From assembly GCA_018668255.1 (NCBI GenBank), contig JABISZ010000010.1, positions 48,724 through 112,723 of the forward strand: a stretch of 64,000 nucleotides of DNA, given 5' to 3'. Source of the stretch: Pseudomonadota bacterium (GTDB lineage: Bacteria > Pseudomonadota > Gammaproteobacteria > Ga0077536). Shown one piece after another: positions 3,011 to 61,091 of this stretch. The notes beneath the pieces are model-generated. The model worked only from the letters and a program-made list of their open reading frames with translations. It did no database searches and was not told where the DNA came from. The position numbers and the translations under genes are program-made. The stretch's first letter is position 1. Each line of letters opens with the position of its first letter.

Positions 3011-6000
3011 ATGTTCAAAATCATAGAAGCCATTGGGGCAAAGGTTCCTAAGGCGTTCGCATATTTCATAATAGCAGTTGGGTTTGCGGCTGTTATTACG
3101 CGCATTTTACTCCCCCTCAGCAAACTCGACACCGATTTCTTCTCAGACCATGTAACCGCTTTCTCTGGTAGACCCGCCTCAATCCAAAATGTCCGATTCA
3201 GTTGGACGGGATGGGCACCTACGTTAACAGCGCAAAAACTGGATATCTTGGATAAGCAGAACGGCACCACACTGATTCATTTTCCCCTAGTAAGAATCGA
3301 AGTATCGCCTATTCAGAGTTTAATTAACCGCGAGCTTACTGCTAAAAAAATAACCTTTGAAAAACTCAATATCAGTTTGGTTCGAGATGAAGTAGGTAAA
3401 ATATCAGTGAGGGGGATGCCTCCTCCTAAATTTCCAATTTTCAACTGGTTACTTTCGCAAAAAGTATTCAGCCTGATTGACGTGACTCTTCAATTTGAAG
3501 ATAAAACGACTCAACAAGATATCTTGCTTACAAATCTCACAGCAATAAGCACTCATAAGGAAGGCCATCAAATATTTGGCTCCGCCCAATTACCAAAAGA
3601 ATTAGGACAATATTTCGAATTCTCTATGGAATCTGACTCTACGATAGCGAATGGAGTAGAAAATCTAGAGGTGTTACTCAGAGCTGAAAATCTAAATTTA
3701 AGGAGCGTACTTAAGATATTAAATCAGCCCTTAGGTCTTGATGAAGTGCTGATAGCAGACTTCAGTGGGAAAGGTGTCTGGGAAGATTCAACTTTGAAAA
3801 TTTTTGACTTTTCTTTTCGGGAACCGTCTTCGGCCATCAGGTCAGAAAAGTCTATCGCTATTGAAGGCTCGGTTAGCTCCACAGAATCGACTTGGAAGCT
3901 CGATATAAGACACCTATCAGTGCCACATATCTCTTCGCTGAAAACACAAAACGCAATAAACTTAGTGTGGCAGCAAGATCCCCTAATCAATAAAGAAATC
4001 GAGTTCTCAGCTAAGCAGTTTGACATTGCGATAGCGATGTACTTGGCTCGACTGACAGCTGCCATGCCTCTTGAAGCCCAAAACCTACTGGAAACTGTCC
4101 ATCCGCGAGGTTCAATGGAAAATATCATAGGTCATTATTATCCTGATGATACGGACTCCGCTTTTGATATAGACCTCGGTGTAAAAAATTTATCCACTAG
4201 AGGAACTGATAAATATCCGGCTCTAAACGGTTTTTCAGGGGTTGCAAAAATAACCCGGATTGAGGGGAAACTAATGCTATTGAAGACGGATTTCACTCTC
4301 GATGAACATCATAATCTTGATAGCGCTTTAGAATTCAACAGTCTTGAAGGCTCGCTCGGCTGGGAGAAAAATGAAAAAGGTAAATGGAGTATTTCGGTAC
4401 CTGGTATTTCTGGAAAACTAAACAACTCGGCCTTTCATATCTCTGGTCGTTATAAGAACTTGCTCTCTAATGAGGCTTATCTCGAAGTTGGTGTCTCTTT
4501 CCCTAAGATTGACGCTCAGAGTCTTAGTAGCCTAGTGCCTGTCAACATAGTCTCCCGCAAAGGTGAAGCCTGGATGCGGAACTTGTTCCATAAGGGGCAG
4601 TTGACCGAAGGGATAATAGCTTTTCGGGGACCGACGAAAAATTTTCCATTTAGAAACTCTGAAGGTACGCTCGTCGCTGATTTCAAAGTCAGTAAATCGA
4701 CGTTGGAATATGCTGAATTCTGGCCTTTAGCACGTGACGTAAATGGACATATAGCTCTGCGGGAGGACAACCTTTATTTGCTCATTAATGAAGGAACTAT
4801 CAGTGAAGCCTCAATATCGAAGGCCAATATTAAGTGCGAGCAACTCTTTAATAAAGAAAAATTTGTAAGCATCACTGGTACAGCAACGGCTCCCGGCACC
4901 TTTCCCTCCGAGCTAGTCCTAGCAAGTCCATTAATAAACACCAAGGCGAAGCAAATTACGCAATTCATATTAGAGGACGATATTACGCTGTACCTAGATA
5001 TGACTGTTCCTCTTTTTAGTGGAGGGAAAAAGGATATTTCTGGTAGAGCTGCTCTTGATAAAAATACGTTAAGTTTAGCTCGTACGGATATTAAATTAAC
5101 GGAGGTTTCGGGAAACCTGTTCCTCAAAAATAACCAATGGTGGACGAATGAGCTAACCGCTATTTTAGATGGTACAGAAATACATCTTAATGCTAAAAGT
5201 GGAAGAAATACTGAGCTCTACGCTGCTGAAGCGCATATCCGAGGCAATTCGACAATCGAAAAACTGATGTTTAGGCTTGGGAAACACAGTCCAGTCTTCG
5301 CCAAATGGCTTACTGAAAAAAACTTTACCGCATACAATAAAGGAAATTTAGACTGGGATACGACTATAACGCTGCCTAAAAAAACCTATAAAGATAATAA
5401 GCAGAAGTTTAATGGTCAGTTTAAATTTAGCTCTAATTTAGTAGGTGTAAAATCAACATTGCCTCTGCCGATGAAAAAATTAGCACGAAATGAAAAACAA
5501 TTTTCAGTTGATCTTGAAATAGAAGACGGAAAATTAAAAGGTGGCTTCATCGACTTCTCTGAAAGCGGTGAGGTGCCGACCGTCGAAACTGGAGAACATA
5601 CTGCACCGCACAAGGGCATTCTCTTTCGTGGATCATTTGATCATTTAGAAATAGATTTATGGATGAATTTTTTCAAAGGAGATAGTCCCACCAATGAAGA
5701 TATGGCAAAAATCCCACTGCTTTTTGACTTACGAACTGGAGCTGCCACTCTTTTCGGCCACAAATTTAGTGATATGCGGATTAAAGGTCTCCAAATCGGA
5801 AAAGGCTGGAATATCGAGATAGAGGGAATAGACGCCTCTGGTAATATTATCACTCCTTCTCTCAGCAACTCCAACGTGCTTGACATTAAACTTCAACACC
5901 TGCGTCTAATAAAAAATAAATCGTCAATAGAAGCTGTTCCGCAAGAAAACTCCGATTTGAAACCTAATGAATTCCCTTCTCTTGTAATAGACATTAATGA

Positions 6001-7268: not shown

Positions 7269-8385
7269 GTCTTGGTTAGCCCCGTCAGATTCTCGCTCGC
7301 CGGATCAGATACATGTAGTTGTTGCTATGTCGGGCGGGGTCGACTCTTCAGTAGCGGCGTTGATGCTTAAGGAAGCTGGTTTTAACTGCTCGGCTCTTTT
7401 TATGAAAAATTGGGATGAGATGGAAGATCAGGGAACATGTCAATGGGAGGAGGATGTTGCAGATGCACTTCAGGTCTGCGATATGCTGGAAATTCCTCTC
7501 AATACTGTCGATTTGTCAAAAAATTATTGGGATTTAGTATTCAAAGACTTACTAGACGGCTATAAATTAGGACGAACGCCTAACCCAGACGTTTTGTGTA
7601 ATCGGGAAATTAAGTTTAAGGCATTTGCGGATGAAGCTTTTCGACTGGGAGGTGACTTCATCGCAACAGGTCACTACGTACAGAGTATATTTGACGGTCA
7701 AAAAAAATTACTCTTAAGAGGGGATGACCCTCAAAAAGATCAAAGCTATTTCCTCCATACACTGGATCAAGAACAACTAAAAAAAGCACTTTTCCCAGTT
7801 GGCCACCTCAAGAAAGAACAAGTAAGAGAGCTTGCAAAAAAAGCTGGTATAAAGGTACATGACAAAAAAGACAGCACGGGAATCTGTTTTATTGGCGAAA
7901 GGGATTTTAGACAATTCCTTTCAAAATATATTCCCTCAGAAGAAGGACACATAATCGATACTGCCGGGAATAAAATAGGTCTACATCAGGGAGCCGCGCT
8001 TTATACCATAGGGCAGCGTAAAGGTCTGGGTATTGGAGGTATTAAAAATGCAACAGACGAGCCGTGGTTCGTGGTAGAAAAAAACCTTGCAAAGAACGAA
8101 CTTACGGTGGCTCAAGGCACATCTAATCCAGCCTTGCTTGGTGACGAGCTGACGCTATCGGAGATATCCTGGGTCAACCAAGACAACGGTGAATATCCTA
8201 AATCTCTATTAGCAAAAATCCGATATCGACAACCTGATCAAAAATGTCTTGTGTCGAAGAGAGATGGTCCCGGATATGAAGTGTCTTTCGAGCAGAAGCA
8301 ACGCTCAATCGCCCCAGGCCAGTCAATAGTTTTTTACGAAGAAGATGTCTGCTTGGGTGGAGGAATAATAGAAATCTCTGAATAA
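7261..8385 (+). CDS. mnmA: tRNA-specific 2-thiouridylase MnmA
   Basis: PP-loop motif AMSGGVDSS and conserved catalytic cysteines. The start overlaps the nudJ stop by 8 nt. Confidence 0.9.
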   Translation: MYKSWLAPSDSRSPDQIHVVVAMSGGVDSSVAALMLKEAGFNCSALFMKNWDEMEDQGTCQWEEDVADALQVCDMLEIPLNTVDLSKNYWDLVFKDLLDGYKLGRTPNPDVLCNREIKFKAFADEAFRLGGDFIATGHYVQSIFDGQKKLLLRGDDPQKDQSYFLHTLDQEQLKKALFPVGHLKKEQVRELAKKAGIKVHDKKDSTGICFIGERDFRQFLSKYIPSEEGHIIDTAGNKIGLHQGAALYTIGQRKGLGIGGIKNATDEPWFVVEKNLAKNELTVAQGTSNPALLGDELTLSEISWVNQDNGEYPKSLLAKIRYRQPDQKCLVSKRDGPGYEVSFEQKQRSIAPGQSIVFYEEDVCLGGGIIEISE

Positions 8386-33023: not shown

Positions 33024-35129
33024 TTGAGCTCTTATATTTGCGGTCTAGATATAGGCGGAACTTTTACAGATTGCGTGCTCATAGACGAACATGGCGATCT
33101 TACAATCGCAAAATCACCTTCCACACCATCCGATTTTGCAGTTGGTGTGTTGAATGCTATAGAAAGAGCTGCCGTAAAAATTGGCCTCTCAACCCCGGAT
33201 CTTCTTGACTCAATTAACGTGTTAGCTCACGGAACTACAGTAGGAACTAACACTATAATTCAAAGACGGGGAGCTAAAGTTGGGCTCATTACGACAAAAG
33301 GCCATAACGATGTTATTCATATTATGCGAGGCTCTCGAGGGCTTGCAGGCCAAGATATCAAGTTAATTGTCCACATCCCTGAAAGCAGTAAGCCTAAACC
33401 TCTGATTCCTAAAAGATTGATTCGCGGAGTGTCTGAACGAGTCGACTGCTTTGGAAAAATTGTCGTTGAGTTAAATGAACTAGAAGTAGAAACCGCAATC
33501 AGAGAACTTCAAGATGCGGGATGCGACGCATTAGCCGTCTGCTGTCTCTGGTCTTTTCTCGAACCGAAACATGAGCAAAGGATCAAGGCCATCGCTCATA
33601 AAATAGCTCCAGAAATGTACGTTACGTGCTCTACCGATTTAGCTCCGAAATGGGGTGAGTATGAACGCACTACCGCTGTCGCTCTTAATGCATACATTGG
33701 ACCTATTACTGTCGGGTACATTACTCGCTTAGATAAACAGCTAAAAGAAATGGGTTATAAACCTCCACTGCAGATAACGCATTGTGCTGGAGGGACAATT
33801 ACTGTGCCAAAAGCACAGGAGGCTCCTTTACTAACCCTCGATTCAGGACCTGTATCAGGTGTCACAGGCTCTGTTTTCCTAGGTGGCTTGATGGGCTATC
33901 CCAACGTAATTACCACTGATCTCGGCGGCACCTCCTTTGATGTCGGTGTGATACACAATGGCAGTCCTGTAGTCTCTTATAAAAGCACAGTTAATCAGTA
34001 TGAATATTTTCTACCCAAAGTTGATGTCCAAACATTAGGTACTGGAGGTGGCAGTAAAGTTTGGATAGATCAGACAACAAATTCTCTTCGGGTAGGTCCC
34101 AATAGTGCTGGAGCGGATCCAGGACCGGTATGCTATGGGAAAGGAGGAACTACTCCGACAACGACTGACGCTGATCTTGTTCTAGGCTATCTCGACCCCA
34201 ATAACTTTGCAGCAGGAACGATTAAACTGGACCATAAAGCGGCAACTGAGGCTCTACAAAAGATAGCAGATGAACTCGAAATGACACTTTTTGAGCTTGC
34301 CAGCGGCGTTGCTACTATCGCTGAATTCCAGATGGCAGATCTAATTCGTAAAGTGACCGTACAAAAAGGCCTAGACCCACGAGAATTTGTCGTGTTCGCT
34401 TTTGGTGGCGCAGGTCCTGTACATATGGGCGTCGCTGCACGGGAGCTAGGAGTTGACAAGGTCATAGTCCCACAAGGCGATACTGCGGCGGTCTGGTGCG
34501 CATTTGGAGCAGCCTCCGCAGATATTCTCCATGTTGGAGAACAAGCGAAAATTATTTCATCTCCATTCAACTTAACCGAAATCAATAAGATTCTGAACGG
34601 GTTGTCTTTGAAAGGAAGCCAACAGTTGCAGAGCGATGGTATAGAACAGGCGAAGCATCAGTTTCAATATTCATTGGACATGAGACATCGTGGCCAAATT
34701 AATGAAGTCGAAGTGTTTATAGATAGTGGAATACTCGATGAGAAAGCACTTGAGGCGTTAAGAGAGAAGTTCGTAGCTCGGTACGAGCAACTATACGGCC
34801 GTGGCTCTGCAATGCATGATGCTCGACTAGAAATCGTAACGGCGAGGTGCCGCTCATCTGCTCTATCATTAAAACCTAAACTTAAAGAGTTTTCTTTAAC
34901 ATTAGAGCCTCTCCCCGCGGACGCCAAAACTGGGACCAGGGATATCTATTGGGCTGAAAAACAATCTGTCGAAACAACTCCTATATTTAATGGCTATCTT
35001 TTTAAACCTGGAAACAGCGCTGAAGGGCCTTGCGTTGTCGAAACAGAAACCACGTCGATCGTTGTGCACCCTAAACAGGAAATCAGCATGGACACTTTTA
35101 GAAACTTTGTGATCAACCCCAATACCTGA
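33024..35129 (+). CDS. Hydantoinase/oxoprolinase A-type subunit (HyuA; acetone-carboxylase beta-like)
   Basis: 701 aa, TTG start, N-terminal GLDIGGTFTD ATPase (ASKHA) motif. Confidence 0.85.
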   Translation: MSSYICGLDIGGTFTDCVLIDEHGDLTIAKSPSTPSDFAVGVLNAIERAAVKIGLSTPDLLDSINVLAHGTTVGTNTIIQRRGAKVGLITTKGHNDVIHIMRGSRGLAGQDIKLIVHIPESSKPKPLIPKRLIRGVSERVDCFGKIVVELNELEVETAIRELQDAGCDALAVCCLWSFLEPKHEQRIKAIAHKIAPEMYVTCSTDLAPKWGEYERTTAVALNAYIGPITVGYITRLDKQLKEMGYKPPLQITHCAGGTITVPKAQEAPLLTLDSGPVSGVTGSVFLGGLMGYPNVITTDLGGTSFDVGVIHNGSPVVSYKSTVNQYEYFLPKVDVQTLGTGGGSKVWIDQTTNSLRVGPNSAGADPGPVCYGKGGTTPTTTDADLVLGYLDPNNFAAGTIKLDHKAATEALQKIADELEMTLFELASGVATIAEFQMADLIRKVTVQKGLDPREFVVFAFGGAGPVHMGVAARELGVDKVIVPQGDTAAVWCAFGAASADILHVGEQAKIISSPFNLTEINKILNGLSLKGSQQLQSDGIEQAKHQFQYSLDMRHRGQINEVEVFIDSGILDEKALEALREKFVARYEQLYGRGSAMHDARLEIVTARCRSSALSLKPKLKEFSLTLEPLPADAKTGTRDIYWAEKQSVETTPIFNGYLFKPGNSAEGPCVVETETTSIVVHPKQEISMDTFRNFVINPNT

Positions 35130-35140
35130 GGTTATTTCAG

Positions 35141-37420
35141 ATGCCACGAATAAGCGAAATGACTGACGTAGACTTCAATGGAATTGAAAATCCCTACGTG
35201 CCACCGAAAATCCTGAAAATAGCCTCAAAACTAAGGCTTCATCAAACCTGGGACAAAGAAGTCGACCCGGTAACTTATGAAGTTATCCGTCATAACCTTT
35301 GGCAAATTAATGAAGAGCATGGGGCAACGATACAGCGCCTGTCGGGGTCTCCTGTCGCAATGTACGCTCTCGACTTAAACCCATCCATCCTGACTGAAGA
35401 TGCAGAGTTCGTATACTTTGGCCCTTATATGCAATACATGTCTGGTGTGACAGACACCCAAGTAAAATGGACTCTGGAATACCGAAGTGAGAATCCTGGG
35501 ATAAATGAGGGGGACATGTTTATAGCCAATGATCCGTGGGTAGGGGCGGCTCATCAACAAGATGTGATGCTACTTTGTCCAGTTTTTTGGGAAGGAGAGC
35601 TTTTCTGTTGGATAACAAACTGTCTTCACCAATATGACATCGGAGGGATAACTCCCGGCAGCTTCTGTCCATCTGCGGAATCAGTTTACGAAGAAGGACT
35701 AATGCTTCCACCTCTCAAGATAATTGAAAACTATGAAGTCAGAAAAGATATTGAAGCCGTATATCTAAGGTCGTCCAGAAAGCCTGATTTAGTAGCGTTA
35801 GACTTCCGAGCCCAAATTGCAGGTAACACAACTGCGCGTGATCGAATTTTAGAGCTCATCAAGCGCTATGGAGCAGCCACACTGAAAGGTGTAATGAAAA
35901 GGATTATAGACAACTCGGAAAAATCCTACTTAGATAAAATGTCACGCTTACCTGACGGAGAATGGTCTGATCGAACGTATATAGAGGCTTGCCGCCCGGG
36001 TGACAGACGAACTCATCGGGTCATGTTAGGTCTTCGTAAAGAAGGCAATAAACTTATCTTTAACAATGACGGTTCTGCACCCCAGGAAGGAGCTATGAAT
36101 GCAACTTACTCGGGTTGGCGTGGTTCCGTAATGGTTGCTGTGAATGAATTACTTTGCTGGGATCAGTATTTTGCATGTGGCGGTGCTTTACGGCACATTG
36201 AGTTTGACCCTACGCCGGGAACGCTCAATTGTGCAGACTTCCCATCGTCCGTCTCGACTGCTCCGATACAAGCTATGGAAATTTCACTATATCCCGCCTA
36301 TAACGTCATATCCAAAATGATTTACCCCGATCCGATCATGCGAAAAGACATCATGTGTATCGGCGGCACCAGCCAATGGCCTGCTACTTTATTCAGAGGG
36401 ATCGATCAGTGGGGTGAAAAGTATGGCTATCTACTCATTGATCCTATTGGCGGCGCCATAGGCGCATTTACTATGGCAGATGGTATAAACACTGGTGGAC
36501 AAGCAAGAACGCCTATCTGTCAATTGCCTAATGTGGAACATACGGAACAAAATTTTCCTATCTTGTTCCTTTACCGCAAAGAGCTCAGTGACTCGGGTGG
36601 AGCAGGGAAATACAGAGGCGGACTTTCTGCTGAAAGCTGCTTCATCCCTCATAATACTGAATTCGTTACGCAGGACACTCTTTCTTCTGGCAATGCAATA
36701 CCTACTTCACCTGGCCTGATGGGAGGATACCCATCAACTACTAATGCCTATACATTCGTCAAAGACAGCAATATTTTTGACTGTATGGCGTCGTCACAGA
36801 TGCCAAAGGATACAGACGAATTATTAGGGAATTCCGTAACGTTGCAGCTTCGGGAACAAAACTTCACCCAAGATCCTAAAGATGTATACGCCGTCAGATG
36901 GAGTGGTGGTGGTGGATTCGGTGACCCTTTTGATAGAGCACCAGAGGATATAGAGGATGACTTGGAGTCGCTTGCTATAACCGAAAATTCTGCGGAAACA
37001 CTTTATGGTGCAATCTTAGGCAAAGATGGCCATGTTGATGTTGAAAGGACACGCGAACATAGAGCCAAAATAAGGAAATCTAGAGTTACTGAAATTAAGA
37101 AATCAAATAGGAAGGGTCAGTTGTTATCTGAAAATTCGCACTCAATCAACATTATGCGAGATGACGCCGGCACCTACTGGGCTTGCGCAAAATGTGACTT
37201 CGAATTGGGTGATATCTCAGAGAACTATAAAGAACATTGCGTGACCGAGAATCAAAGCATCGCAGTCTCCAATCCTTTGATTGGCGACGAAGCTAGATTC
37301 ATCGATAACGCGGTTGAATTTAGGCAATTCTATTGCTGCCAGTGCGGCTGCCTTCTAGACAACGAAATCGCAATCGCTGAAGATCCTTTGCTCCACGATT
37401 CAAGGCATCAGCTCAGTTAA
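35141..37420 (+). CDS. Hydantoinase B/oxoprolinase-type subunit (HyuB) fused to a C-terminal Cys4 zinc-ribbon extension
   Basis: 759 aa. The HyuB core ends near GGGGFGDP. The ~110-aa C-terminal tail carries CAKC (residue 682) and CCQCGC (residue 732). Confidence 0.8.
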   Translation: MPRISEMTDVDFNGIENPYVPPKILKIASKLRLHQTWDKEVDPVTYEVIRHNLWQINEEHGATIQRLSGSPVAMYALDLNPSILTEDAEFVYFGPYMQYMSGVTDTQVKWTLEYRSENPGINEGDMFIANDPWVGAAHQQDVMLLCPVFWEGELFCWITNCLHQYDIGGITPGSFCPSAESVYEEGLMLPPLKIIENYEVRKDIEAVYLRSSRKPDLVALDFRAQIAGNTTARDRILELIKRYGAATLKGVMKRIIDNSEKSYLDKMSRLPDGEWSDRTYIEACRPGDRRTHRVMLGLRKEGNKLIFNNDGSAPQEGAMNATYSGWRGSVMVAVNELLCWDQYFACGGALRHIEFDPTPGTLNCADFPSSVSTAPIQAMEISLYPAYNVISKMIYPDPIMRKDIMCIGGTSQWPATLFRGIDQWGEKYGYLLIDPIGGAIGAFTMADGINTGGQARTPICQLPNVEHTEQNFPILFLYRKELSDSGGAGKYRGGLSAESCFIPHNTEFVTQDTLSSGNAIPTSPGLMGGYPSTTNAYTFVKDSNIFDCMASSQMPKDTDELLGNSVTLQLREQNFTQDPKDVYAVRWSGGGGFGDPFDRAPEDIEDDLESLAITENSAETLYGAILGKDGHVDVERTREHRAKIRKSRVTEIKKSNRKGQLLSENSHSINIMRDDAGTYWACAKCDFELGDISENYKEHCVTENQSIAVSNPLIGDEARFIDNAVEFRQFYCCQCGCLLDNEIAIAEDPLLHDSRHQLS

Positions 37421-37422
37421 TG

Positions 37423-37878
37423 CTAGTGCTTGACGCGATACTCATCGTGGCAGCCTTTGCACATCTTTACAGTAACGCCAAATTGTCTCTTCATGGCCGC
37501 CTTGTCTCCTTCACTAGCAACTATGGCCAACTTCTGAGATGCAGATGCCAAATCACTCATTCTTTTTTGAAAGTCAGGCAAGTTCTCCCATAATTCAGGC
37601 CGAGCTTCAGACTTCGCATCCTTCGTAGACACGTCAAAACCCTCAGCCACCATCGGTGCCAACTGCGCTACTCGGTCTGCCAAAAAAGCAAAGCGCTCTT
37701 TATCAAACGGCACCTTCCCTTGGACCATGGCACCCATAGGCCCGATATTCCAACCTAGCGCCATCAATACACCTTGGCGATAATGAACTGCATCATCGGG
37801 TTTGGGCGCGGCTTGTGCTCCTCCCAAAAAAGCTAACAAGACGCATAGAGTTACAACGACGTTCAATACTTTTTTCAC
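37423..37878 (-). CDS. Cytochrome c' / class II cytochrome c
   Basis: 151 aa with a signal peptide and a single CKGCH heme motif near the C-terminus. Confidence 0.8.
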   Translation of the reverse strand: MKKVLNVVVTLCVLLAFLGGAQAAPKPDDAVHYRQGVLMALGWNIGPMGAMVQGKVPFDKERFAFLADRVAQLAPMVAEGFDVSTKDAKSEARPELWENLPDFQKRMSDLASASQKLAIVASEGDKAAMKRQFGVTVKMCKGCHDEYRVKH

Positions 37879-37889
37879 TTACATCCCCT

Positions 37890-38561
37890 TTATAAGTTGA
37901 ATCTAAAATTAACTATTACACAAATAATCGCAATACTCAGTAACAAAGTTGCAAAAGGTAGGAAAAAACCGTGCCGGATCTTACTTGCATTTTTATCTCT
38001 CAAATATTTATAGCCACTCAGCATCGCACCTACTAAGTGCTCGCGCTTCCAAACTCGATAAAAAAATATCGCCAAAACATGGATGATAATCAAAACAGTC
38101 AAATTATTGAAATTCGTATGGTGTACCCACGTCAGCCAATCGCTGGTGAGCTTAGTCACATTGGCATAAAGCGGCCCTTCATTAAACAAGTCGTCATTGG
38201 CAAACAAGCCCGTAGCAAACTGCACAACCAAAAGTAAAAGAAACGCTATGACTACCCAGCCACCAATAGGGTTGTGCGTTAAGTAATGTTCTGGTTGCCT
38301 GATTTTTAGCTCCAAAATAGCACGAACAACTATTCTTGGACCTCGAATAAACTCGGAGAACTTGGCAGACTGTGATCCCCAAACCCCCCAAAACAGACGA
38401 AAAAAAACAAGAATACCAATGCCGTAACCACAAAACATATGGTATTTCATCAATAGACCGCCTTCTCGCGCTGTCCACCAAGCGGACAGAATCAAAACGA
38501 CTAATAACCAATGAAAGCACCTGATCCATAGGTCCCAGACGTAAACTTTCTCACTGCTCAT
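37890..38561 (-). CDS. Cytochrome b561 family membrane protein
   Basis: 223 aa with 4 TM segments carrying conserved His pairs. Operonic with cytochrome c'. Confidence 0.75.
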   Translation of the reverse strand: MSSEKVYVWDLWIRCFHWLLVVLILSAWWTAREGGLLMKYHMFCGYGIGILVFFRLFWGVWGSQSAKFSEFIRGPRIVVRAILELKIRQPEHYLTHNPIGGWVVIAFLLLLVVQFATGLFANDDLFNEGPLYANVTKLTSDWLTWVHHTNFNNLTVLIIIHVLAIFFYRVWKREHLVGAMLSGYKYLRDKNASKIRHGFFLPFATLLLSIAIICVIVNFRFNL

Positions 38562-38738: not shown

Positions 38739-40262
38739 TTGGGGACAATAGTGAAAATCAAAAGACCTACTAGTGAGCAAATTGACTTAATCGCTGAGCA
38801 ATTCGGACTAAATCTTGAATTGGATGATATTGAGTCATTCAAGGCGCTAATGGAGGGGCCAATAGCTTCTTACGAACGGCTAGATGAGCTTTGCGAACCG
38901 AAGCCAGAAGTCAAATATCCTAGAAACCCGGGCTATCGACCTAACGCTGATGAAAATCCGAACAACGCATGGTATTACAAAACATTAATAAAGGGCGCGG
39001 CTCACGGTAAGCTCAGTGGAAAAACCATTGCTATAAAAGACAACGTCTGTGTAGCTGGAGTTCCGATGATGAATGGCTGTTCAGTACTCGAAGGGTATAT
39101 TCCAGATATAGATGCGACAGTGGTAACAAGGATCTTAGATGCGGGGGGTGAAATAGCAGGGAAGTCTGTATGCGAAAACTTATGTTTTTCCGGAGGAAGT
39201 CACACTACTGCCGCGGGACCGGTGACTAACCCTCATAATCCGGAATACACTACCGGTGGTTCTTCAAGCGGAAGTGCAGCGCTGGTTGCATCTGGTGGCG
39301 TTGACATGGCTATTGGCGGAGATCAAGGCGGTTCAATACGTATGCCAGCTAGCTGGTGTGGGGTGTATGGCTTAAAACCTACGCATGGGCTAGTGCCTTA
39401 TACGGGCGCATTTCCGATTGAGATAACCCTTGACCATTTAGGGCCCATAACTAACAACGTAACGGACTGTGCTCTGCTACTCGAAGTTATTGCTGGGGAC
39501 GATGGAATGGATCCGCGACAACGTAATTTAAAAGTAGACAAATATACGGAAGCACTTGTCACTGATATACATGAACTCAAAATTGGCGTTGTGTCTGAAG
39601 GTTTCAATTGGGAAGGTCAATCCGAACAAGATGTGGATACAAACGTGCGTGCTGCGGCTAGTCAACTAGAAAAGCTTGGAGCTCACGTTGAGGAAGTGTC
39701 TATCCCTATGCATAAAGATGGGATCCACATCTGGAATGCAATCGCTATTGAAGGTGCCAATTCCTTGATGATAAAAGGCAATAGCATGGGAACGAATTGG
39801 AAGGGCTATTACAACACTGGGTTGCTCGATTCATTTGCGAGAGGTCGTATCACTAGAGCTGACGATCTGTCAGAAACTACCAAACTGGTAATGTTAATGG
39901 GCCAGTATATGGATGAGCAGTACCATGGTCGCTATTATGCTAAGGCGCAAAATCTTGCCACTGCTCTCAAAGCAGCGTACGACTCAGCTTTTGAAAAATA
40001 CGACCTACTATTGATGCCTACTCAACCAATGAAAGCGACAAAAATACCTGAAAAATCTTGTTCCAGAGAAGATTATGTCGCTCGCGCTTTGGAAATGGTA
40101 AATAATACAGCTCCTTTTGACGTCACCGGACACCCGGCCATAACTATTCCAGTAGGCAAGTCAAAGGGACTCCCTGTAGGTATGATGCTTATCGGGAAAA
40201 GCTTTGATGAGAGTACAATACTAAGAGCAGCTTATACATACGAACAAGCGACAGTAATATAA
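38739..40262 (+). CDS. Amidase (amidase signature family)
   Basis: 507 aa with the [14 protein letters not shown] amidase signature. It is directly upstream of nitrile hydratase. Start is TTG at 38739 or GTG at 38751. Confidence 0.85.
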
Positions 40263-52328: not shown

Positions 52329-54782
52329 CTAACTCCTTGTCCGTACGCTTTTCGGATCGTACATTGGTGTCAGTGAAGCCTTAGCCTTATACAGTCTATC
52401 AGCTTGCTCGATTTCAAACACTCCCGTCGACAAGAATTCACTGGTTATTCCCTCTGAATTTTGCAGGTAGCCCATAGAAGCGCACGCTCCTAAAGTGTGC
52501 GCATATGCCGAGGAAGCCGTGTATCCGATCCTCTCCCCATCGCGTAAGATTGATTCATTGTGAGAAAGTACCGGCCCATTATCTTCTAGTAAGAACTGTA
52601 CCAGTCGCTTATTAACTGGCCCTCTCTCACGCTGGGCGAGCAAGGCTTCTCGTCCAATGAAGCCTGCAGGTTTATCCCAGTCACATGTGAACGACAGCCC
52701 GCACTCAATTAACGTATCTCTCGGGCTCATATCGTGAGCCCACTCGCGATACCCTTTTTCGATTCGCAAAGAATTAAGAGTATGATAACCACAGTGTTTG
52801 AGTCCATACTGAGCTCCTTCTTCAACTATCTTGTCATACACCATGAGAGCCATTTCGGTTGGAATATAAAGTTCCCAACCAAGTTCTCCGGTATATGAAA
52901 TCCTCACAGCCATAGCACTCTGGTAGCCAATTTCTATAGATTGCATTGTTCCAAACGGAAAGCTACTGGAGGAGAAGTCAGTAGATGAAATACTTGCCAT
53001 TAATGACCGTGCTTGAGGCCCTTGTATGTTGAGCATCGCGTATGAACTGGTTATATCAGTGATTATACAATGTGCATCATCTGGTATGTGCTCATGTATC
53101 CATGCTTTCACGTGGGTCGCAGTAAATGCCGCTGTTACAATCAGATATTTATCTTTTTCTATTCTAGTGACTGTTAAATCAGCTTCAACTCCGCCCGTTT
53201 GATTTAAGAACTGAGTGTAAACGACTGTTCCAGCTTTGACTGACATACTCGCCGTCGCGATAAAATTTGGTGTCTTTTCAGCATCTTTTCCTTGAACTAA
53301 TATTTTCTGGAAAGAAGATTGGTCAAAGATTCCCACAGCAGTTCGTACAGCTTGATGCTCTGCGGCATTATTATTAAACCAATTTTGTTTTCCAAAATCG
53401 TACTTATACTCCGCTTCCTCTCCAGGTAGCGCGTACCAATTGGGTCGCTCCCATCCAGCAGACTCACCAAAACAAGCTCCGACTTTCTCTAAACGTTCGT
53501 GTAAAACTGACTTTTTCATATTGCGCCCAGTTTCCCATTGCCGGTTAGGCCAATGCATTTTATAGGCGATACCGAGAGACTCGCTAGTGCGATCGACTAT
53601 AAATGCTTTGTTGTTTTGGCAAGGTTGCATCCGTCGGACATCGACATCCCACATATCCATTGGCTGAACACCGTCGTTGATCCATTGAGCCATAACATTA
53701 CCAGCCCCACCACCTGACAATATTCCTAGGGAATTAAATCCACAGGCTATAAATAGCTGTTTAATGTAAGGAGCCTTTCCCATGAGGTAGTTATGATCAG
53801 GAGTAAATGACTCGGGGCCACAAAAAAATTGTCGAATTCCCGTATCGTTAAGAATAGGAAGGCGCTGCATCCCTGTTTCAATATGAGGCAGCATACGATC
53901 CCAGTCAGGGTCAATTTCATCAAAGCAAAAATTTTCAGGGATCCCCTCAGTGGCCCAAGGTGATGCAACTGGTTCAAAAAAACCCAACAAAATTTTTCCC
54001 GCTTCCTCTCTCGCGTAGATGCCTCGACCAGGATCTCTCAATATAGGAAGTTGATTGTGTACTTCTTTTATCGGTTCTGAAATCAAGTAATAGTGTTCCG
54101 CGGCTTGCAAAGGTATATCTATTCCATTTGTTAACCCGAATTCTCTTCCCCACATACCTGGGCACATTACAACGACTTTTGCTCTCATTTCGCCTTGGTC
54201 TGTAATTACACCAACGGCTCGACCATTTTCTATGATGAGTTCTTTAACTAGTGTGTCTTCAAAAATACGTACACCTTGTTGTCTTGCGCCTTTTGCGAGT
54301 GCCTGAGCGACATCAGCAGGATTTACTCGACCATCGTTCGGAAAGTAAAACCCTGCGAGCAAATCATCTACATAAGTTAACGGAAATAGATCTTGGACTT
54401 GTTGAGGGGAAATTTCTTCACTTTCTACACCGAATGTTCGCGCCAAAGCACATCCACGCCGCATTTCTTCAACCTTGTCTTTAGTCATAGCTAGCTGTAT
54501 CGAACCACATTTAATGAATCCAGTAGCTTGCCCCGTCTCTTCTTCTAGATCTTCATATAATTTTAAAGAATATTGAGCAAGACGTGTTTGACTCTCCGTG
54601 TCACGAAGTGTCGTAACAAGTCCAGCCGCATGCCAAGTTGTACCAGAGCTTACTTTTTTTCTTTCTAGAACAACTACGTCATCCCACCCAAGCTTAGCTA
54701 AGTGATAGGCAGTTGAACACCCTATAACACCTCCTCCAATTACAATCGCACGGGCGTTTTTAGGTAGGGTTTTCTCACTCAT
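52329..54782 (-). CDS. Dimethylglycine/sarcosine dehydrogenase family flavoprotein (DAO domain plus GcvT-like aminomethyltransferase domains)
   Basis: 817 aa. N-terminal GGGVIGCSTAYHLAKLG FAD motif and a C-terminal GcvT fold. Confidence 0.8.
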   Translation of the reverse strand: MSEKTLPKNARAIVIGGGVIGCSTAYHLAKLGWDDVVVLERKKVSSGTTWHAAGLVTTLRDTESQTRLAQYSLKLYEDLEEETGQATGFIKCGSIQLAMTKDKVEEMRRGCALARTFGVESEEISPQQVQDLFPLTYVDDLLAGFYFPNDGRVNPADVAQALAKGARQQGVRIFEDTLVKELIIENGRAVGVITDQGEMRAKVVVMCPGMWGREFGLTNGIDIPLQAAEHYYLISEPIKEVHNQLPILRDPGRGIYAREEAGKILLGFFEPVASPWATEGIPENFCFDEIDPDWDRMLPHIETGMQRLPILNDTGIRQFFCGPESFTPDHNYLMGKAPYIKQLFIACGFNSLGILSGGGAGNVMAQWINDGVQPMDMWDVDVRRMQPCQNNKAFIVDRTSESLGIAYKMHWPNRQWETGRNMKKSVLHERLEKVGACFGESAGWERPNWYALPGEEAEYKYDFGKQNWFNNNAAEHQAVRTAVGIFDQSSFQKILVQGKDAEKTPNFIATASMSVKAGTVVYTQFLNQTGGVEADLTVTRIEKDKYLIVTAAFTATHVKAWIHEHIPDDAHCIITDITSSYAMLNIQGPQARSLMASISSTDFSSSSFPFGTMQSIEIGYQSAMAVRISYTGELGWELYIPTEMALMVYDKIVEEGAQYGLKHCGYHTLNSLRIEKGYREWAHDMSPRDTLIECGLSFTCDWDKPAGFIGREALLAQRERGPVNKRLVQFLLEDNGPVLSHNESILRDGERIGYTASSAYAHTLGACASMGYLQNSEGITSEFLSTGVFEIEQADRLYKAKASLTPMYDPKSVRTRS

Positions 54783-56173: not shown

Positions 56174-56590
56174 ATGAAAGATAAGACAGCAACGGGTTCC
56201 TGCCAGTGTGGAAATATTCGTTATTCACTTCTCGCCCCCAGTCGTGAGTTACATCATTGTCATTGCTCAATGTGTCGAAAATCTCATGCGTCGATGTTTG
56301 GGACCTATGCAACAATAGAAAGAGAGTATTTTGTAGTCGAAGAAGGAAAAGATTTTCTTTCTACTTACTTAACTACTCCTGACGTCCATCGCCACTTCTG
56401 CTCGGGCTGCGGATCACACATTTTCATAGATGTTGACTGGGAACCTGATTTAGTTTGGTTTACACCAGGCACCATTGACACGGGCCATCCAAATCATCCT
56501 CCGGAAACCGAGAGGCACATTTGGGTAGATTCTAAAAATCCTCTTTATGAGATCACTGGCGACCTTCCAAAGTACAGGGAATTTGATTAG
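56174..56590 (+). CDS. GFA family protein (glutathione-dependent formaldehyde-activating enzyme/CENP-V fold)
   Basis: 138 aa with zinc-binding motifs CQCGNIRY and CHCSMCRK. Confidence 0.8.
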   Translation: MKDKTATGSCQCGNIRYSLLAPSRELHHCHCSMCRKSHASMFGTYATIEREYFVVEEGKDFLSTYLTTPDVHRHFCSGCGSHIFIDVDWEPDLVWFTPGTIDTGHPNHPPETERHIWVDSKNPLYEITGDLPKYREFD

Positions 56591-56625: not shown

Positions 56626-58311
56626 TTAAAGGCCGTAGAACTCCTTAGCCCGATCTTCAGTGACGTAGCCTTCGCGGACATCTTCTTCCACCGACGCCCT
56701 CGATCTCTCTAGTGGGGATCCGTACCCGCCACCACCCGGCGCTAACACTCTCACTCGATCACCTGGGGTCATAGGGATGTTTGAATATTTGCTCGGGCTT
56801 ACTTTCCCATAACCCTCAACGGTTGTCTCCCATTTTTCGGTGCCGGATTTTTTGTATAGAGTAGCCCCGAGCGCTCCTTCTTGCCCGTCCTCTAGCCCCC
56901 ACGCAGAAAGTTTATGTTTGTTAGTCATTTGACTTACCAGCATTTCTCCGGTGCAGAGCATTTGTTTCACATTACTTAGCCCTCCTCGGAATTTACCTGG
57001 CCCACCTGAGTTCGGTCGCAGAGCATACTCCTCCACTATCCAAGGGAAGCGAGTCTCAAATACTTCCATAGGCGTATTTGAACAGTTTCCATTGATTGAG
57101 TCAGTGGCATCATTTCCGTCAGCGAACAACCGGCCACCATAACCAACGTAGCTAAAGTCGAAGCCTCCATACGGCTCATCGTTCAGGGGGTCGTGCCCTC
57201 CAAAAACAAAACAACCATGAGTTGTCCCTTCTGATGCCATCACACGATCAGGCACGCAATTCACCATAGCCCCAAAAATGGCACAAACTATTAAAGGATG
57301 GCTTTCAGTATTTCCTCCTACCGAGGAGCCGGGATAATCAACATTCATCACCGTGCCAGCTGGAGCTATTACTCGTATCGGTCTCAAGCAGCCAGAATTT
57401 AAAGGAATGGTTTCATCGGTCATGTGCAGGATTGCGTTAAAAGCGGCTGACCAAGCAACACCGAGCGTGGCATTGATAGGCCCTTTGGCCTGTTTAGAGG
57501 AACCCGTATAGTCCACCACAACTTCTCCACCCTGCACGTAAACAGCAACATGAATTTCATACTTTTTATCTTCAATTCCATCATCTTCAATTGTGTCAAT
57601 AAAGGTATACTTGCCGTCTTTGAATGTCTCTAATTCTGCACGCATTCGTTTTTCGGAGTAATCCATCAAGTCCTGCACGGTCTTCTCAAAAGCTTGAGCA
57701 CCATATTTTTCAATCAGACTTTTCAGCCTTTCTTCTCCTAGATCTACAGCACTAATTAGGGCTCGCATGTCTCCATAATTACCTCGCGGAGTGCGTACAT
57801 TCGCCAACATCATTTTCCAAACTTCTGGAACGTCTTTGCCTTCCTTCATGATTTTTACAGGAGGGACGCGTAATCCTTCATGGAATACTTCAGTAGCTTC
57901 ACCAGGAAAGCCTCCAGGAACCATTCCTCCTACTTCTACGAAATGACCGATACAAACCGAAAATGCGACAATCTCTTTGTTGACAAAAATTGGCTTGAAA
58001 ACGGTATGCTCTGGAGTATGCAACCCGCCTCTATACGGATCGTTGTGCACGATGACATCTCCTTCATTCATATCGGAAAGAGGGATTTCCTTAACCATCG
58101 AGCGCACCAACAAAGGCACGCCACCTATCTGGGCAGGGCAGAAATCTGCTACCGCCATTAACTCCCCGTTACGGTTGGCTAAAGCACAAGTGAAATCTTC
58201 AGCTTCACTAAAAATAGTCGAATAAGCTGTTTTCTGTACATTTATTCCCATTTCCCGAGCAATAGCGATCATTGCCGATTCAACTATGTTCATGTGGATC
58301 ATGTCCATCAA
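56626..58311 (-). CDS. Hydantoinase B/oxoprolinase-type subunit (HyuB), second copy
   Basis: 561 aa, canonical HyuB length with no C-terminal extension. Confidence 0.85.
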   Translation of the reverse strand: MMDMIHMNIVESAMIAIAREMGINVQKTAYSTIFSEAEDFTCALANRNGELMAVADFCPAQIGGVPLLVRSMVKEIPLSDMNEGDVIVHNDPYRGGLHTPEHTVFKPIFVNKEIVAFSVCIGHFVEVGGMVPGGFPGEATEVFHEGLRVPPVKIMKEGKDVPEVWKMMLANVRTPRGNYGDMRALISAVDLGEERLKSLIEKYGAQAFEKTVQDLMDYSEKRMRAELETFKDGKYTFIDTIEDDGIEDKKYEIHVAVYVQGGEVVVDYTGSSKQAKGPINATLGVAWSAAFNAILHMTDETIPLNSGCLRPIRVIAPAGTVMNVDYPGSSVGGNTESHPLIVCAIFGAMVNCVPDRVMASEGTTHGCFVFGGHDPLNDEPYGGFDFSYVGYGGRLFADGNDATDSINGNCSNTPMEVFETRFPWIVEEYALRPNSGGPGKFRGGLSNVKQMLCTGEMLVSQMTNKHKLSAWGLEDGQEGALGATLYKKSGTEKWETTVEGYGKVSPSKYSNIPMTPGDRVRVLAPGGGGYGSPLERSRASVEEDVREGYVTEDRAKEFYGL

Positions 58312-58353
58312 TATCTCTCCTTAGGTACTAAGTGCTTTATTGTGCTTAACCGC

Positions 58354-58566
58354 CTAACCAATCTCATGTAGCTTTTCATGTCCGAACGGAATCTTGGGTT
58401 CTTCCACCCCATCAGCTTTTGCTGATGACCAATCTATACACCATTTAGAGCAGAATACTTCATTCGGCGCGATCTCAGATTTCAACCCGTCTGAATAAAG
58501 TAGCATTCCACAGTTCGAGCACTTGATGTATCGCTCGATATAATATCCATTATCTGAAAATTTCAT
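58354..58566 (-). CDS. Small Cys4 zinc-ribbon protein (candidate gamma-like subunit of the adjacent HyuA/HyuB enzyme)
   Basis: 70 aa with CSNC...CSKWC motifs. It lies between hyuA and hyuB on the same strand with short gaps. Confidence 0.5.
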   Translation of the reverse strand: MKFSDNGYYIERYIKCSNCGMLLYSDGLKSEIAPNEVFCSKWCIDWSSAKADGVEEPKIPFGHEKLHEIG

Positions 58567-58583
58567 GTGTTAGCCCTTATATA

Positions 58584-60617
58584 TTAGTTCGTTGCGATTT
58601 CTGCGATTAAAATATTTCCATAAGGATCTATTTTTACGTTGTACTCGGGTCTGATTACAGTCACGGAGGCGCCCTCTTCGATAATAGCCGGCCCATTGAA
58701 GTGATCGCCTGCCTTTAGTTTTGTACGAGAATATACGGCCGTGTTTAAGTATCCAGAATCAAATCTCACTTCGCGTGTGCTCATTGGTTCGGCTGGGGTA
58801 ATAGCTTTTTCAATTTCCGGGAGACTTGGTTTTAAAGTCACCGATACTGCTGTTACTTTAATACTTATCAGTTCAATAGTTTCTCCAGGGATATCAAAAC
58901 CATACCGGGCCTTATGGACTGAATGAAACCGTTCCCATACTTCCGTAGTTGTCAGGTCGTCAAAGACATCGAATGCGATAGGAACCTCTAGTTCATGATT
59001 TTGTCCGAAATACCTCATTTCTAGGGACCGATAGACCTCAAGCGTTCCCGAGTATCCTTGAGCAGAAAGCGATTCTTCTGCTTCTTTTACAAGATCAGAC
59101 AACACCCTGCTAGCATGTTCTTCACCGAAGGCTTTCGATGTCATTTGCGCCGTCCGCTCTAAGTCAATTCGAGCGTCCGTCATAATGAACCCGAAGGCGG
59201 AAAATTGGCCTGGGTAATTAGGTACGATACCACTTGAAATATTCGCCGAATGCATCACGTCAGTGATGTGCACGGGCCCAGCTCCACCAAAAGCCAGCAG
59301 CGTAAAATCTCTCGGATCCAAGCCTCTTTCTGTTAATACCATCCGCAGGGCGCCAACCATATTGTTGTTAGCTATTTGAACGATACCGATAGCAGCTTCA
59401 TCAATAGTAACTTTAATTTCATCAGCTACTTTTTGCACTGCATTCTTAGCTGCGGCAACATCTAATCCCATTTCACCCCCAAGGAAATTAGATGGGTTTA
59501 TGCGACCTAAAACGACATTGGCATCAGTAACAGTCGGCTCCTCGCCCCCGCGGCCATAACATGCTGGCCCCGGTTGAGCGCCAGCACTTTGTGGTCCTAC
59601 GCGCAGCATTCCACCTTTATCAATCCAAGCAATAGATCCACCGCCTGCTCCCATGGTTCGAATATCTAACATCGGAATTTGTATGGGGATCCCAAATTCA
59701 ATTTCGTAACTCGTCGTGAAACTTTCCCGGGCATTGACCACTGTAGAAACGTCAGTCGAAGTGCCGCCCATGTCTAGTGTTACGAGATTTCTAATGCCTG
59801 ACAAATTTGCAATATATTTGGCACCAATGACACCTCCGGTGGGCCCCGACAAACTCAAATGAATAGGGAATTGTCTTGCCGCCTGAAGTGTTATTTCACC
59901 GCCGTTTGATTTTATTACAGCAATTTTTCCGATGTCGCCTCTCGCTTCTACTCGATCCTGAAGAAGTTGCAGGTTTTTGGACACAATAGGCTTAATGTAA
60001 GCATCAGCTATGGTAGTTGACGATCTTTCATGCTCTTTCCATTTAGGTAGGAGATCGTATGAAATAGACACAGGTTTTTTCGGACATTCGGTTTCAAAAA
60101 TAGCTTTTAGCTGGCGCTCATGTTCGGGGAAAATATACGAGCACAACAGACATATTGCGATTGATTCAATCTCAGGGTCTGAGTTTATTTTTTTCGCCAC
60201 TTCACGAGCTTGCGATTCATTTAACGGCTTATAGATACCCTCTCGAGGAGTTACTCTTTCATCTATCTCATAACAGTCGCGTCTTTTAACAAGCGGTTTG
60301 GATTTAATCCATGTGATGTCATAGTGACTTTTACGTTTTCCTCTTTGTATAAACGGAACATCCTTAAACCCTTGTGTAGTGACAAATGCGACCTTCGCGC
60401 CCTTTCTCTCGAGAATCGCGTTGGTCGCGACAGTTGTCCCAAAACGCATATATTCAACTTTATCGGAAATCTTCTGCGCCATCCCATTTAAAATTCCATC
60501 GCTGGGGTCTCCTGGAGTAGACGAAGTTTTCCAAACCTCTAAAGTTTGCGTTTTCGGATCGTAAGAAACAAAATCTGTGAATGTCCCACCAACATCTATA
60601 CCGAGAATACGGGCCAT
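58584..60617 (-). CDS. Hydantoinase/oxoprolinase A-type subunit (HyuA), second copy
   Basis: ILGIDVGGTFTD motif. The start is placed at the internal Met (MARILGID), which has a GGGGAG RBS. The ORF track's first Met is at 60650. Confidence 0.85.
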   Translation of the reverse strand: MARILGIDVGGTFTDFVSYDPKTQTLEVWKTSSTPGDPSDGILNGMAQKISDKVEYMRFGTTVATNAILERKGAKVAFVTTQGFKDVPFIQRGKRKSHYDITWIKSKPLVKRRDCYEIDERVTPREGIYKPLNESQAREVAKKINSDPEIESIAICLLCSYIFPEHERQLKAIFETECPKKPVSISYDLLPKWKEHERSSTTIADAYIKPIVSKNLQLLQDRVEARGDIGKIAVIKSNGGEITLQAARQFPIHLSLSGPTGGVIGAKYIANLSGIRNLVTLDMGGTSTDVSTVVNARESFTTSYEIEFGIPIQIPMLDIRTMGAGGGSIAWIDKGGMLRVGPQSAGAQPGPACYGRGGEEPTVTDANVVLGRINPSNFLGGEMGLDVAAAKNAVQKVADEIKVTIDEAAIGIVQIANNNMVGALRMVLTERGLDPRDFTLLAFGGAGPVHITDVMHSANISSGIVPNYPGQFSAFGFIMTDARIDLERTAQMTSKAFGEEHASRVLSDLVKEAEESLSAQGYSGTLEVYRSLEMRYFGQNHELEVPIAFDVFDDLTTTEVWERFHSVHKARYGFDIPGETIELISIKVTAVSVTLKPSLPEIEKAITPAEPMSTREVRFDSGYLNTAVYSRTKLKAGDHFNGPAIIEEGASVTVIRPEYNVKIDPYGNILIAEIATN

Positions 60618-60818
60618 ACAAAAATCTCCCCAAACATTTAAACGACACACGCTTTTTTTATCGCGCTAATTCTTTCTACATAGGGTAGACCATGTAGATT
60701 ATAAAAACTATGGATATCTCCTGCTACCAAATACACACGTATTTACTACAGAAGCGAGCTATAGAAGACGTTGGGAAAGGTATTCTTAAACTCATGATCT
60801 TAGATAATATAGGGGCTT

Positions 60819-61091
60819 CTAGTTGCTCAACTTGTTATTAAAATAATTCCATACCCCATAAATACTTATAGCAGTCCAGCATACTTCGATTATTAACGCA
60901 GATAGATTGAAATCGAACAAAAGGGTAAATCCAATCAGGAGAGATCCTCCTAAGTTGAGCACAGAATACTGTAAATCAAAGCTAGTCCAGCGCCGCGTTT
61001 GCAACTGAAAGTAAGCGATTAAACACAGCACTACACCTATTGTTCCGATAAAGTCATACCACTGGATTGTCATTTCCCATCCTTTTGACAA
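60819..61091 (-). CDS. Small membrane protein (2 TM), hypothetical
   Basis: 90 aa with two hydrophobic helices and no recognisable family. Confidence 0.4.
   Translation of the reverse strand: MSKGWEMTIQWYDFIGTIGVVLCLIAYFQLQTRRWTSFDLQYSVLNLGGSLLIGFTLLFDFNLSALIIEVCWTAISIYGVWNYFNNKLSN

Follow-up and report, generated by a model that had tools for sequence, protein, structure and literature searches.

A predicted TRASH/zf-FCS-type zinc finger protein as a candidate third component of one clade of HyuAB-type enzymes

Layout of the hyuA-S-hyuB locus

The DNA analysed here is a 64,000-nucleotide (nt) stretch, hereafter the window, of contig JABISZ010000010.1 from the genome assembly of a Pseudomonadota bacterium (GCA_018668255.1). 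Three genes lie in tandem on its minus strand: hyuA (58584..60650; 688 amino acids [aa] as listed, GTG start), a gene for a 70-aa protein with four cysteines, named S in what follows (58354..58566; ATG start), and hyuB (56626..58311; 561 aa as listed, TTG start). hyuA and S are separated by 17 nt (58567-58583), and S and hyuB by 42 nt (58312-58353). The coordinates of the open reading frames (ORFs) thus confirm the tight tandem described in an earlier note on this DNA, which had been made from the letters alone. The translation of S is MKFSDNGYYIERYIKCSNCGMLLYSDGLKSEIAPNEVFCSKWCIDWSSAKADGVEEPKIPFGHEKLHEIG; it contains KCSNCG and FCSKWC, and its cysteines C16, C19, C39 and C43 would form a zinc finger of the TRASH/zf-FCS type. 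P-numbers below denote cluster representatives, and L-numbers genome or metagenome loci.

The hyuA product is predicted to be the ATP-binding alpha subunit of an enzyme of the hydantoinase/oxoprolinase/lactamase type, with Pfam matches to Hydant_A_N (5.4e-49), Hydantoinase_A (1.6e-94) and Hydant_A_C (2.7e-13), while the hyuB product is predicted to be its metal-dependent, hydrolytic beta subunit (Hydantoinase_B, 4.8e-165); all of these matches are above the Pfam cut-offs. The true start of hyuA is probably the ATG at 60617, which is preceded by GGGGAG 8 nt upstream and would give a protein of 677 aa; that of hyuB is probably the ATG at 58308, with AAGGAG upstream. Alignments with homologues agree with both choices. 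A putative ribosome binding site (RBS), AAGGG, precedes the ATG of S, and a search for terminator-like sites between hyuA, S and hyuB found none.

HyuA contains the sequences IDVGGTFTD, LDMGGTSTD and GAQPGPACYG, in line with the ATP-binding motifs of the family (DxGGTxTD, DxGGT and GxxPGP; PMC8453981). HyuB residues D39, H98 and E101 align with the metal ligands of the caprolactamase subunit CapB (Asp41, His99 and Asp102; PMC8453981), with a conservative Asp-to-Glu change at the third position. Since the ATP motifs and the HyuB metal ligands are retained, the enzyme should be able to catalyse the ATP-dependent hydrolysis of cyclic amides (lactam/hydantoin type). The solved structures nearest to HyuB are the N-methylhydantoinase 7hk5 (1.6e-85) and CapB of caprolactamase (6yra_B, 2e-70). 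The best NCBIfam match of HyuA was CapA, with 517.8 bits, and HyuB scored 312.9 bits against CapB; the equivalog cut-offs of these families (NF050156/NF050157) are 1000 bits, and the pair was therefore rejected as an orthologue of caprolactamase CapAB.

S is a real gene under purifying selection

A word-indexed search returned nine homologues of S with 54-94% identity. Among the 1.84 billion cluster representatives searched with an S profile, 89 matched at E<=1e-3 and 49 at E<=1e-10. C39 and C43 are invariant in the homologue alignment; the conservation of C16 and C19 reaches at least 90%, with an N-terminally truncated member as the sole exception. Thirty-three diverse members share a conserved core that reads M-x-F-S-x-N-G-Y-Y-I-E-x-Y-x-K-C-x-N-C-G-x-L-I-Y, followed after some 14 residues by F-C-S-x-W-C-x-D-W. 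Strong conservation is not restricted to the putative metal ligands, as it extends to the aromatic residues F3, Y8, Y9, Y13, W42 and W46. When S was compared with relatives at 74% protein identity, the proportion of synonymous differences (pS) was 0.75-0.82, which is saturated, and that of non-synonymous differences (pN) was 0.13-0.14; the comparison with two near-identical genomes gave a dN/dS of 0.04-0.06, a value derived from few changes.

S is thus a real gene under purifying selection. The opposite view, that it is a chance ORF in an intergenic spacer, might draw on its shortness and on the fact that the window protein falls in no Pfam or NCBIfam family. It is contradicted by the homologues, the number of matching representatives, the pN and pS values, and the synteny and HyuB fusions described below; we consider its probability negligible, and it was rejected. 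The proposal of the earlier note that the 70-aa ORF is a real, selected component tied to HyuA and HyuB therefore stands. Its remark that proteins of this kind are frequently missed in annotation does not apply here: the exact S protein is already present in metagenome-assembled genomes (MAGs) at NCBI, annotated as 'hypothetical protein'.

S is linked to one clade of HyuA and HyuB

In a scan that started from S and used one genome per GTDB species, S was found at 44 loci. All belong to MAGs, of Alpha- and Gammaproteobacteria apart from one labelled Puniceicoccaceae and one labelled only Pseudomonadota. In 38 of the 44 loci S directly adjoins its cognate HyuA (60-98% identity) and HyuB (73-99%), as determined by tblastn with the window proteins. 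Three gene orders occur. The order A-S-B, that of the window, is found mostly in loci labelled Gammaproteobacteria; S-A-B is found in loci labelled Alphaproteobacteria or Rhodospirillales, often behind a second, distant hyuAB pair; and A-B-S is found at L034 and L041. The remaining six loci carry S without a cognate hyuAB within the flank examined (up to 8 kb).

The reverse scan, starting from HyuB, gave a similar picture. S was detected with its hidden Markov model (HMM; E<=3e-13) in 22 of 26 metagenome loci whose HyuB is at least 69% identical to that of the window, and every one of the four loci without S is cut off at one flank. S was absent from the eight loci of the sister group, in which HyuB is ~58% identical and present in tandem copies. 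More distant members of the S family (39-44% identity to the window S) directly follow hyuA-hyuB in GntR-regulated loci, including those of cultured Siminovitchia (Bacillaceae). The small ORF is therefore conserved at the syntenic hyuA-hyuB loci of relatives (38/44 S loci and 22/26 HyuB loci), a point that the earlier note had proposed to check. A linkage that survives changes in gene order and crosses phyla argues for a functional partnership.

Several variants of this arrangement were observed. The S-A-B cluster lies directly behind a second hyuA-hyuB pair (~35% identity) at L008, L009, L011, L012, L019 and L022-L024, and the same arrangement is seen at L026-L030, L033 and L035, in alphaproteobacterial MAGs. 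As S stands between two different HyuAB enzymes in those MAGs, it could in principle serve either. Two tandem hyuB genes per single hyuA are also frequent (L017, L018, L065, L067; L011, L024, L026, L029, L046; L072-L076, L080), in the arrangements A-S-B'-B (where B' is ~56% and B ~73% identical to the window HyuB), S-A-B-B, and A-B'-B'' without S.

A degraded S was sought in the hyuA-hyuB spacer of L069, a freshwater alphaproteobacterial contig, and only repeat-like sequence was found; S could lie beyond the contig end. Positions 2050-2700 and 4780-4990 of L069 hold repeated short elements that encode almost identical peptides (...PGMTIW..., ...RYQIVIPGVSGARAPKAPGCDACDPGTRA...). These elements lie on either side of hyuA and take up the hyuA-hyuB spacer, the place of S elsewhere, and look like a miniature repeat family.

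Natural fusions join S to the N-terminus of HyuB

In six cluster representatives (P0020, P0025, P0030, P0032, P0048 and P0066) S is fused in frame to the N-terminus of HyuB. The fusions consist of the S domain, a linker of 20-40 residues, and HyuB from its residue 3-5 onward; the HyuB portion shares 47-61% identity with HyuB of the hyuA-S-hyuB operon. The gene for P0066 directly follows the end of hyuA on its contig (L048). Read as Rosetta-stone evidence, these fusions suggest that S acts on, or with, HyuB near the HyuB N-terminus.

IMG/JGI labels many free-standing S proteins of 65-77 aa as 'N-methylhydantoinase B' or '5-oxoprolinase/N-methylhydantoinase B'. This misleading label was probably transferred from S::HyuB fusion proteins.

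Fold class of S

The cysteine pattern of the window S, C16-x2-C19-x18-F38-C39-S40-x2-C43, matches the zf-FCS signature, CX2CX14-30FCSX2C (PMC4047054), and C, S and W are at least 90% conserved among the 33 S members. A Pfam scan of these members yielded nine matches to TRASH_HVO_1752_C (the best at 2.1e-6), nine to zf-FCS, five to Arc_trans_TRASH and four to TRASH_ZMYM4. For P0040 the scores pass the gathering cut-offs of two families, TRASH_HVO_1752_C (28.2, cut-off 27) and zf-FCS (23.3, cut-off 22.4); apart from P0040, the members that match these two families stay below threshold. The window S itself gave only a sub-threshold match to Zn_Ribbon_1 (E 0.028), and it matches no NCBIfam family and no member of the clan above the Pfam cut-off. 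Since the window S falls below the cut-offs that P0040 exceeds, its link to the TRASH clan is transitive. The Siminovitchia members are named 'TRASH domain-containing protein' in UniRef.

An AlphaFold2 (AF2) model of S built from the 33-sequence alignment had a predicted local distance difference test score (pLDDT) of 75 overall, and of 81-88 over residues 11-60; an alignment of this depth was needed, as the model from ten sequences reached a pLDDT of only 44. In the model, short hairpins precede a helix that spans residues 41-51. The structural matches of the model are weak, and TRASH-clan folds recur among the best of them (YacG, the ZMYM5 TRASH domain, L24e, MYND, HIT and FCS). A search of PDB sequences with the S profile gave chance matches only (PvuII and ADF, at E>0.1). 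With moderate confidence, the window S can be placed in the TRASH/FCS group of treble clefs; the S family would add a new and so far uncharacterised family to the TRASH clan. In the literature set searched, which was incomplete, no publication connected TRASH domains to hydantoinase, oxoprolinase or acetone carboxylase.

This fold class bears on two alternatives to a permanent subunit. According to the first, S would be a metallochaperone or metal-insertion factor that holds zinc or another metal transiently and hands it to the Asp/His site of HyuB. The description on which the TRASH clan was founded, as cited in PMC4047054, concerned metal sensing and trafficking. A catalytic metal is required by HyuB, as it is by CapB (PMC8453981), and the ligands of this metal are conserved here. 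The sister clade, which lacks S, shows that the chemistry itself does not require S. Fusion to the client also has a precedent, as copper ATPases carry N-terminal metal-binding domains. Against metal delivery, the four (near-)invariant cysteines have the treble-clef spacing that usually makes an inert, structural zinc site; the conserved aromatic residues listed above point to a stable protein interface; and no further metal-homeostasis genes are conserved nearby. We regard this alternative as unlikely.

The second alternative holds that S is a regulator or assembly factor, either an inhibitor or activator of the enzyme, in the way that YacG acts on gyrase, or a nucleic acid-binding finger that controls the operon. 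YacG, a small Cys4 enzyme inhibitor of the FCS type, was the top Foldseek match of the S model, though a weak one that is not significant (E 0.24). Some zf-FCS domains do bind nucleic acids (PMC4047054), and the six loci with S away from hyuAB place it beside LysR-type regulators. However, several lineages have S fused in frame to the catalytic subunit, which a transcription factor acting in trans would not readily explain; such loci already have dedicated regulators (e.g. GntR); and S, preceded by an RBS of its own, lies within the operon, in which no internal terminator was found. A regulatory role appears slightly less probable still than metal delivery.

The orphan S genes belong to high-GC gammaproteobacterial MAGs and lie at L036 (~8001-8186), L038 (~4588-4773), L043 (~234-419), L044 (~4910-5113) and L047 (~7907-8092), and at L032; none has hyuAB within the flank examined (up to 8 kb). 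Their neighbours include a LysR-type regulator, a cysteine-synthase-like gene, a luciferase-like monooxygenase and a two-component system.

S is not detectably related to the gamma domain encoded at a second locus of the window

The window contains another hyuA-hyuB locus, on the plus strand, in which hyuA (33024..35129; identified by Pfam) is followed by a longer hyuB (35141..37420; 759 aa). This second HyuB matches Hydantoinase_B (6.3e-101), and its residues 671-755 (~nt 37151-37405) match Acetone_carb_G (PF08882; 1.2e-9). The earlier note had proposed that a zinc module is fused to HyuB at this locus, and the PF08882 match bears this out. In NCBIfam the protein scored 218.8 bits for ApcD and matched ApcB (NF042974) at 1.3e-5; in the PDB its nearest structure was chain A of acetophenone carboxylase (5l9w_A, 1.7e-56), and 5l9w_C was matched at 3.8e-4. 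The fused tail is 46-53% identical to the PF08882 proteins P0099-P0102, and its cysteines are arranged as CAKC and CCQC, ~46 residues apart. This is close to the gamma subunit of acetophenone carboxylase (Apc), in which Cys22/25/75/78 form two CxxC knuckles ~49 residues apart (PMC5214803). Judging from these matches, the tail is a genuine gamma domain of the acetone/acetophenone carboxylase type.

The earlier note had also held that S corresponds to this tail, being in effect a free-standing gamma homologue. Both modules are small Cys4 units associated with a HyuB-type subunit, the gamma subunit of Apc binds the HyuB-like subunit (PMC5214803), and some S loci show the acx-like order A-B-S. However, alignment of the 70-aa protein with the tail revealed no detectable similarity by BLASTP (E 0.68). 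A profile comparison by hhalign, with 33 S sequences on one side and the tail plus four PF08882 proteins on the other, gave a probability of 19.8% over 14 columns; these columns surround a single CxxCG knuckle and pair the first knuckle of S with the second of gamma, which are not equivalent. PF08882 was not among the hits listed for any of the 33 S members at E<=10, the window S matched neither PF08882 nor ApcB at E<=0.1, where the fused tail, as a positive control, matched both, and no gamma chain of acetone carboxylase (Acx) or Apc appeared among the fold matches of S. The cysteine spacing of S (C16-x2-C19-x19-C39-x3-C43) is not that of two distant CxxC knuckles, and S is fused to the N-terminus of HyuB where gamma is fused to the C-terminus. 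The homology of S to gamma was therefore rejected at the level of sequences and profiles, and we consider it very improbable.

A search of the whole window with the S HMM matched one ORF only. The two loci had been called paralogous; the HyuAB pairs are distant paralogues, with 34% identity between the HyuA proteins (~700 residues) and 24% between the HyuB proteins, and the pairs fall in different branches. By the structure and NCBIfam matches given above, the locus with S is assigned to the hydrolase (lactamase/hydantoinase) branch and the other to the carboxylase branch. By sequence, then, the window holds two non-homologous Cys4 modules associated with HyuB-type subunits of different branches, gamma as a C-terminal domain and S as a separate protein. 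As S is of the TRASH/FCS type and unrelated to gamma, the two loci would have acquired their zinc modules independently.

Some further features of the second locus were recorded. Only one HyuA-like gene is present, and alpha' and epsilon are lacking. In P0099-P0101 (131-168 aa, encoded on short contigs) the N-terminal sequence resembles the C-terminus of HyuB. These proteins probably represent pieces of a HyuB-gamma fusion, in which case the beta-gamma fusion would be recurrent. Directly after hyuB-gamma, on the minus strand (37423-38561), lie genes for a small CxxCH protein and for a multi-pass membrane protein of 223 aa, which by eye resemble cytochrome c' and cytochrome b561, respectively. 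An amidase gene (Pfam Amidase, 3.7e-100) is found downstream of hyuB-gamma on the plus strand, at 38739-40262.

Genomic context and possible substrate

A gene coding for a glutathione-dependent formaldehyde-activating (GFA) family protein lies next to the hyuA-S-hyuB operon on the plus strand (56174..56590; Pfam GFA, 3.3e-23), outside the enzyme proper. It is a conserved neighbour in the marine gammaproteobacterial clade; 15 related loci have it next to the operon, with 83-98% identity. Another context gene, on the minus strand (52329..54782), codes for a dimethylglycine/sarcosine-dehydrogenase-like (DMGDH-like) protein with the Pfam domains DAO, FAO_M, GCV_T and GCV_T_C; it too stays next to the operon in this clade, with 85-98% identity across 14 related loci, and its product possibly performs a downstream step of the pathway. 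DAO, GCV_T or ETF genes turn up again beside the S loci of other clades. The neighbouring DMGDH-like, GFA, DAO and GCV_T genes hint, weakly, at an N-methylated lactam or hydantoin as substrate, the product of ring opening then undergoing oxidative demethylation.

Neighbouring genes were clustered under a non-overlap filter, because the high-GC MAGs are rich in spurious antisense ORFs. The filtered clusters contained no universal neighbour besides hyuA and hyuB, so the substrate cannot be read from the context. Upstream of hyuA by 168 nt and on the same strand (60819-61091, minus) lies a gene whose 90-aa product is predicted to be a membrane protein and matches no Pfam family; it is kept in the closest relatives only (94-100% identity in L015, L039, L049 and L079).

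Discussion

The reading we favour, with a probability of roughly 60%, is that hyuA-S-hyuB codes for an ATP-dependent cyclic-amide hydrolase with a third, clade-specific component, and that S is a small subunit docking on HyuB. Zinc binding, HyuB binding, the structural role of S and the substrate are inferences. Judging from caprolactamase and oxoprolinase, and from the conserved motifs and the family to which the proteins belong, HyuA would use ATP to phosphorylate the substrate, whose activated ring would then be opened by HyuB at the Asp/His metal site. The four cysteines of S would most likely hold one structural zinc ion, and a docking surface would be made up of its conserved aromatic N-terminal segment (MxFSxNGYYIExYxKC) together with the FCSxWCxDW helix. 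S would sit as a stoichiometric small subunit on HyuB, near the N-terminus that is the attachment point in the natural fusions, and would stabilise or assemble the alpha-beta complex as a zinc-stabilised clamp comparable to the gamma subunit of Apc. The latter 'partly envelops' the HyuB-like subunit, and its Cys4 zinc site is probably structural (PMC5214803). The conserved aromatic non-ligand residues of S and the HyuB fusions support the analogy. S is accordingly seen as most likely a functional analogue of the Cys4 gamma of acetone/acetophenone carboxylases, independently recruited and not homologous to it.

A broader proposal, to which we give somewhat less than even odds, is that HyuB-type subunits recruited a small Cys4 zinc module twice: the carboxylase branch would have taken up PF08882 gamma at the C-terminal side, and one clade of the hydrolase branch a TRASH/FCS finger at the N-terminal side, so that S would define a class, not recognised before, of three-subunit ATP-dependent lactam/hydantoin hydrolases. 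This would be an example of convergent recruitment, with non-homologous zinc modules on one catalytic scaffold. HyuAB enzymes, the gamma subunit and the TRASH clan are known; what would be new is a HyuAB-type enzyme with a non-homologous zinc finger as its third component. If the proposal is true, the S finger might be required for assembly or for gating of the alpha-beta tunnel, or might be a built-in switch for metal delivery to, or regulation of, the HyuB metal site.

ATP-dependent hydantoinases, oxoprolinases and lactamases are relevant to nylon-monomer and lactam biocatalysis and to marine nitrogen cycling, and are currently expressed and modelled as two-subunit enzymes. In the S clade, the cloning of hyuA and hyuB alone may give an inactive, unstable or mis-assembled enzyme. 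The analysis also exposes an annotation error, the IMG label 'N-methylhydantoinase B' on 70-aa S proteins. The S family is small and its function inferred; cultured Siminovitchia carry an S locus, which makes the hypothesis directly testable.

Comparison with known systems

CapAB (6yra), N-methylhydantoinase (7hk5) and OplAB share with the window HyuAB the domain architecture, the ATP motifs and the HyuB metal ligands. These enzymes have been described as heterotetramers of alpha and beta, or as single fused chains, and as having no third subunit (PMC8453981), whereas the window clade has S. The hydantoinase branch has in fact been described as lacking gamma orthologues (PMC5214803).

The gamma subunits of the carboxylases (AcxC and ApcB; PF08882; 5m45, 5svb and 5l9w_C) are, like S, small Cys4 proteins co-encoded with HyuA- and HyuB-like subunits. 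Gamma sits on the HyuB-like subunit and is considered structural there (PMC5214803); fusions of gamma to HyuB also occur, one of them at the second locus of the window. S differs from it in showing no detectable homology, in its cysteine arrangement (CxxC-x19-CxxxC with FCS, against two CxxC separated by ~49 residues) and in size (60-75 aa, against ~100-170 aa). It also differs in belonging to the hydrolase and not the carboxylase branch, and in being fused to HyuB N-terminally and not C-terminally.

With the TRASH clan (zf-FCS/MYM, archaeal TRASH, YHS, YacG/DUF329, L24e, MYND and HIT), S shares the CX2CX14-30FCSX2C signature and the HMM matches obtained from its members, as well as a predicted fold in which two short hairpins precede a helix, with weak structural matches. 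It is set apart by a conserved 14-residue N-terminal extension of its own and by its dedicated genomic association with HyuAB. Within this clan YacG (4tma, 1lv3), a 65-aa inhibitor of DNA gyrase, is like S a free-standing FCS-type Cys4 finger of ~60-70 aa. Its whole function is to bind a large ATP-dependent enzyme, although the partner differs from that of S; to our knowledge YacG is neither encoded in the operon of its partner nor fused to it.

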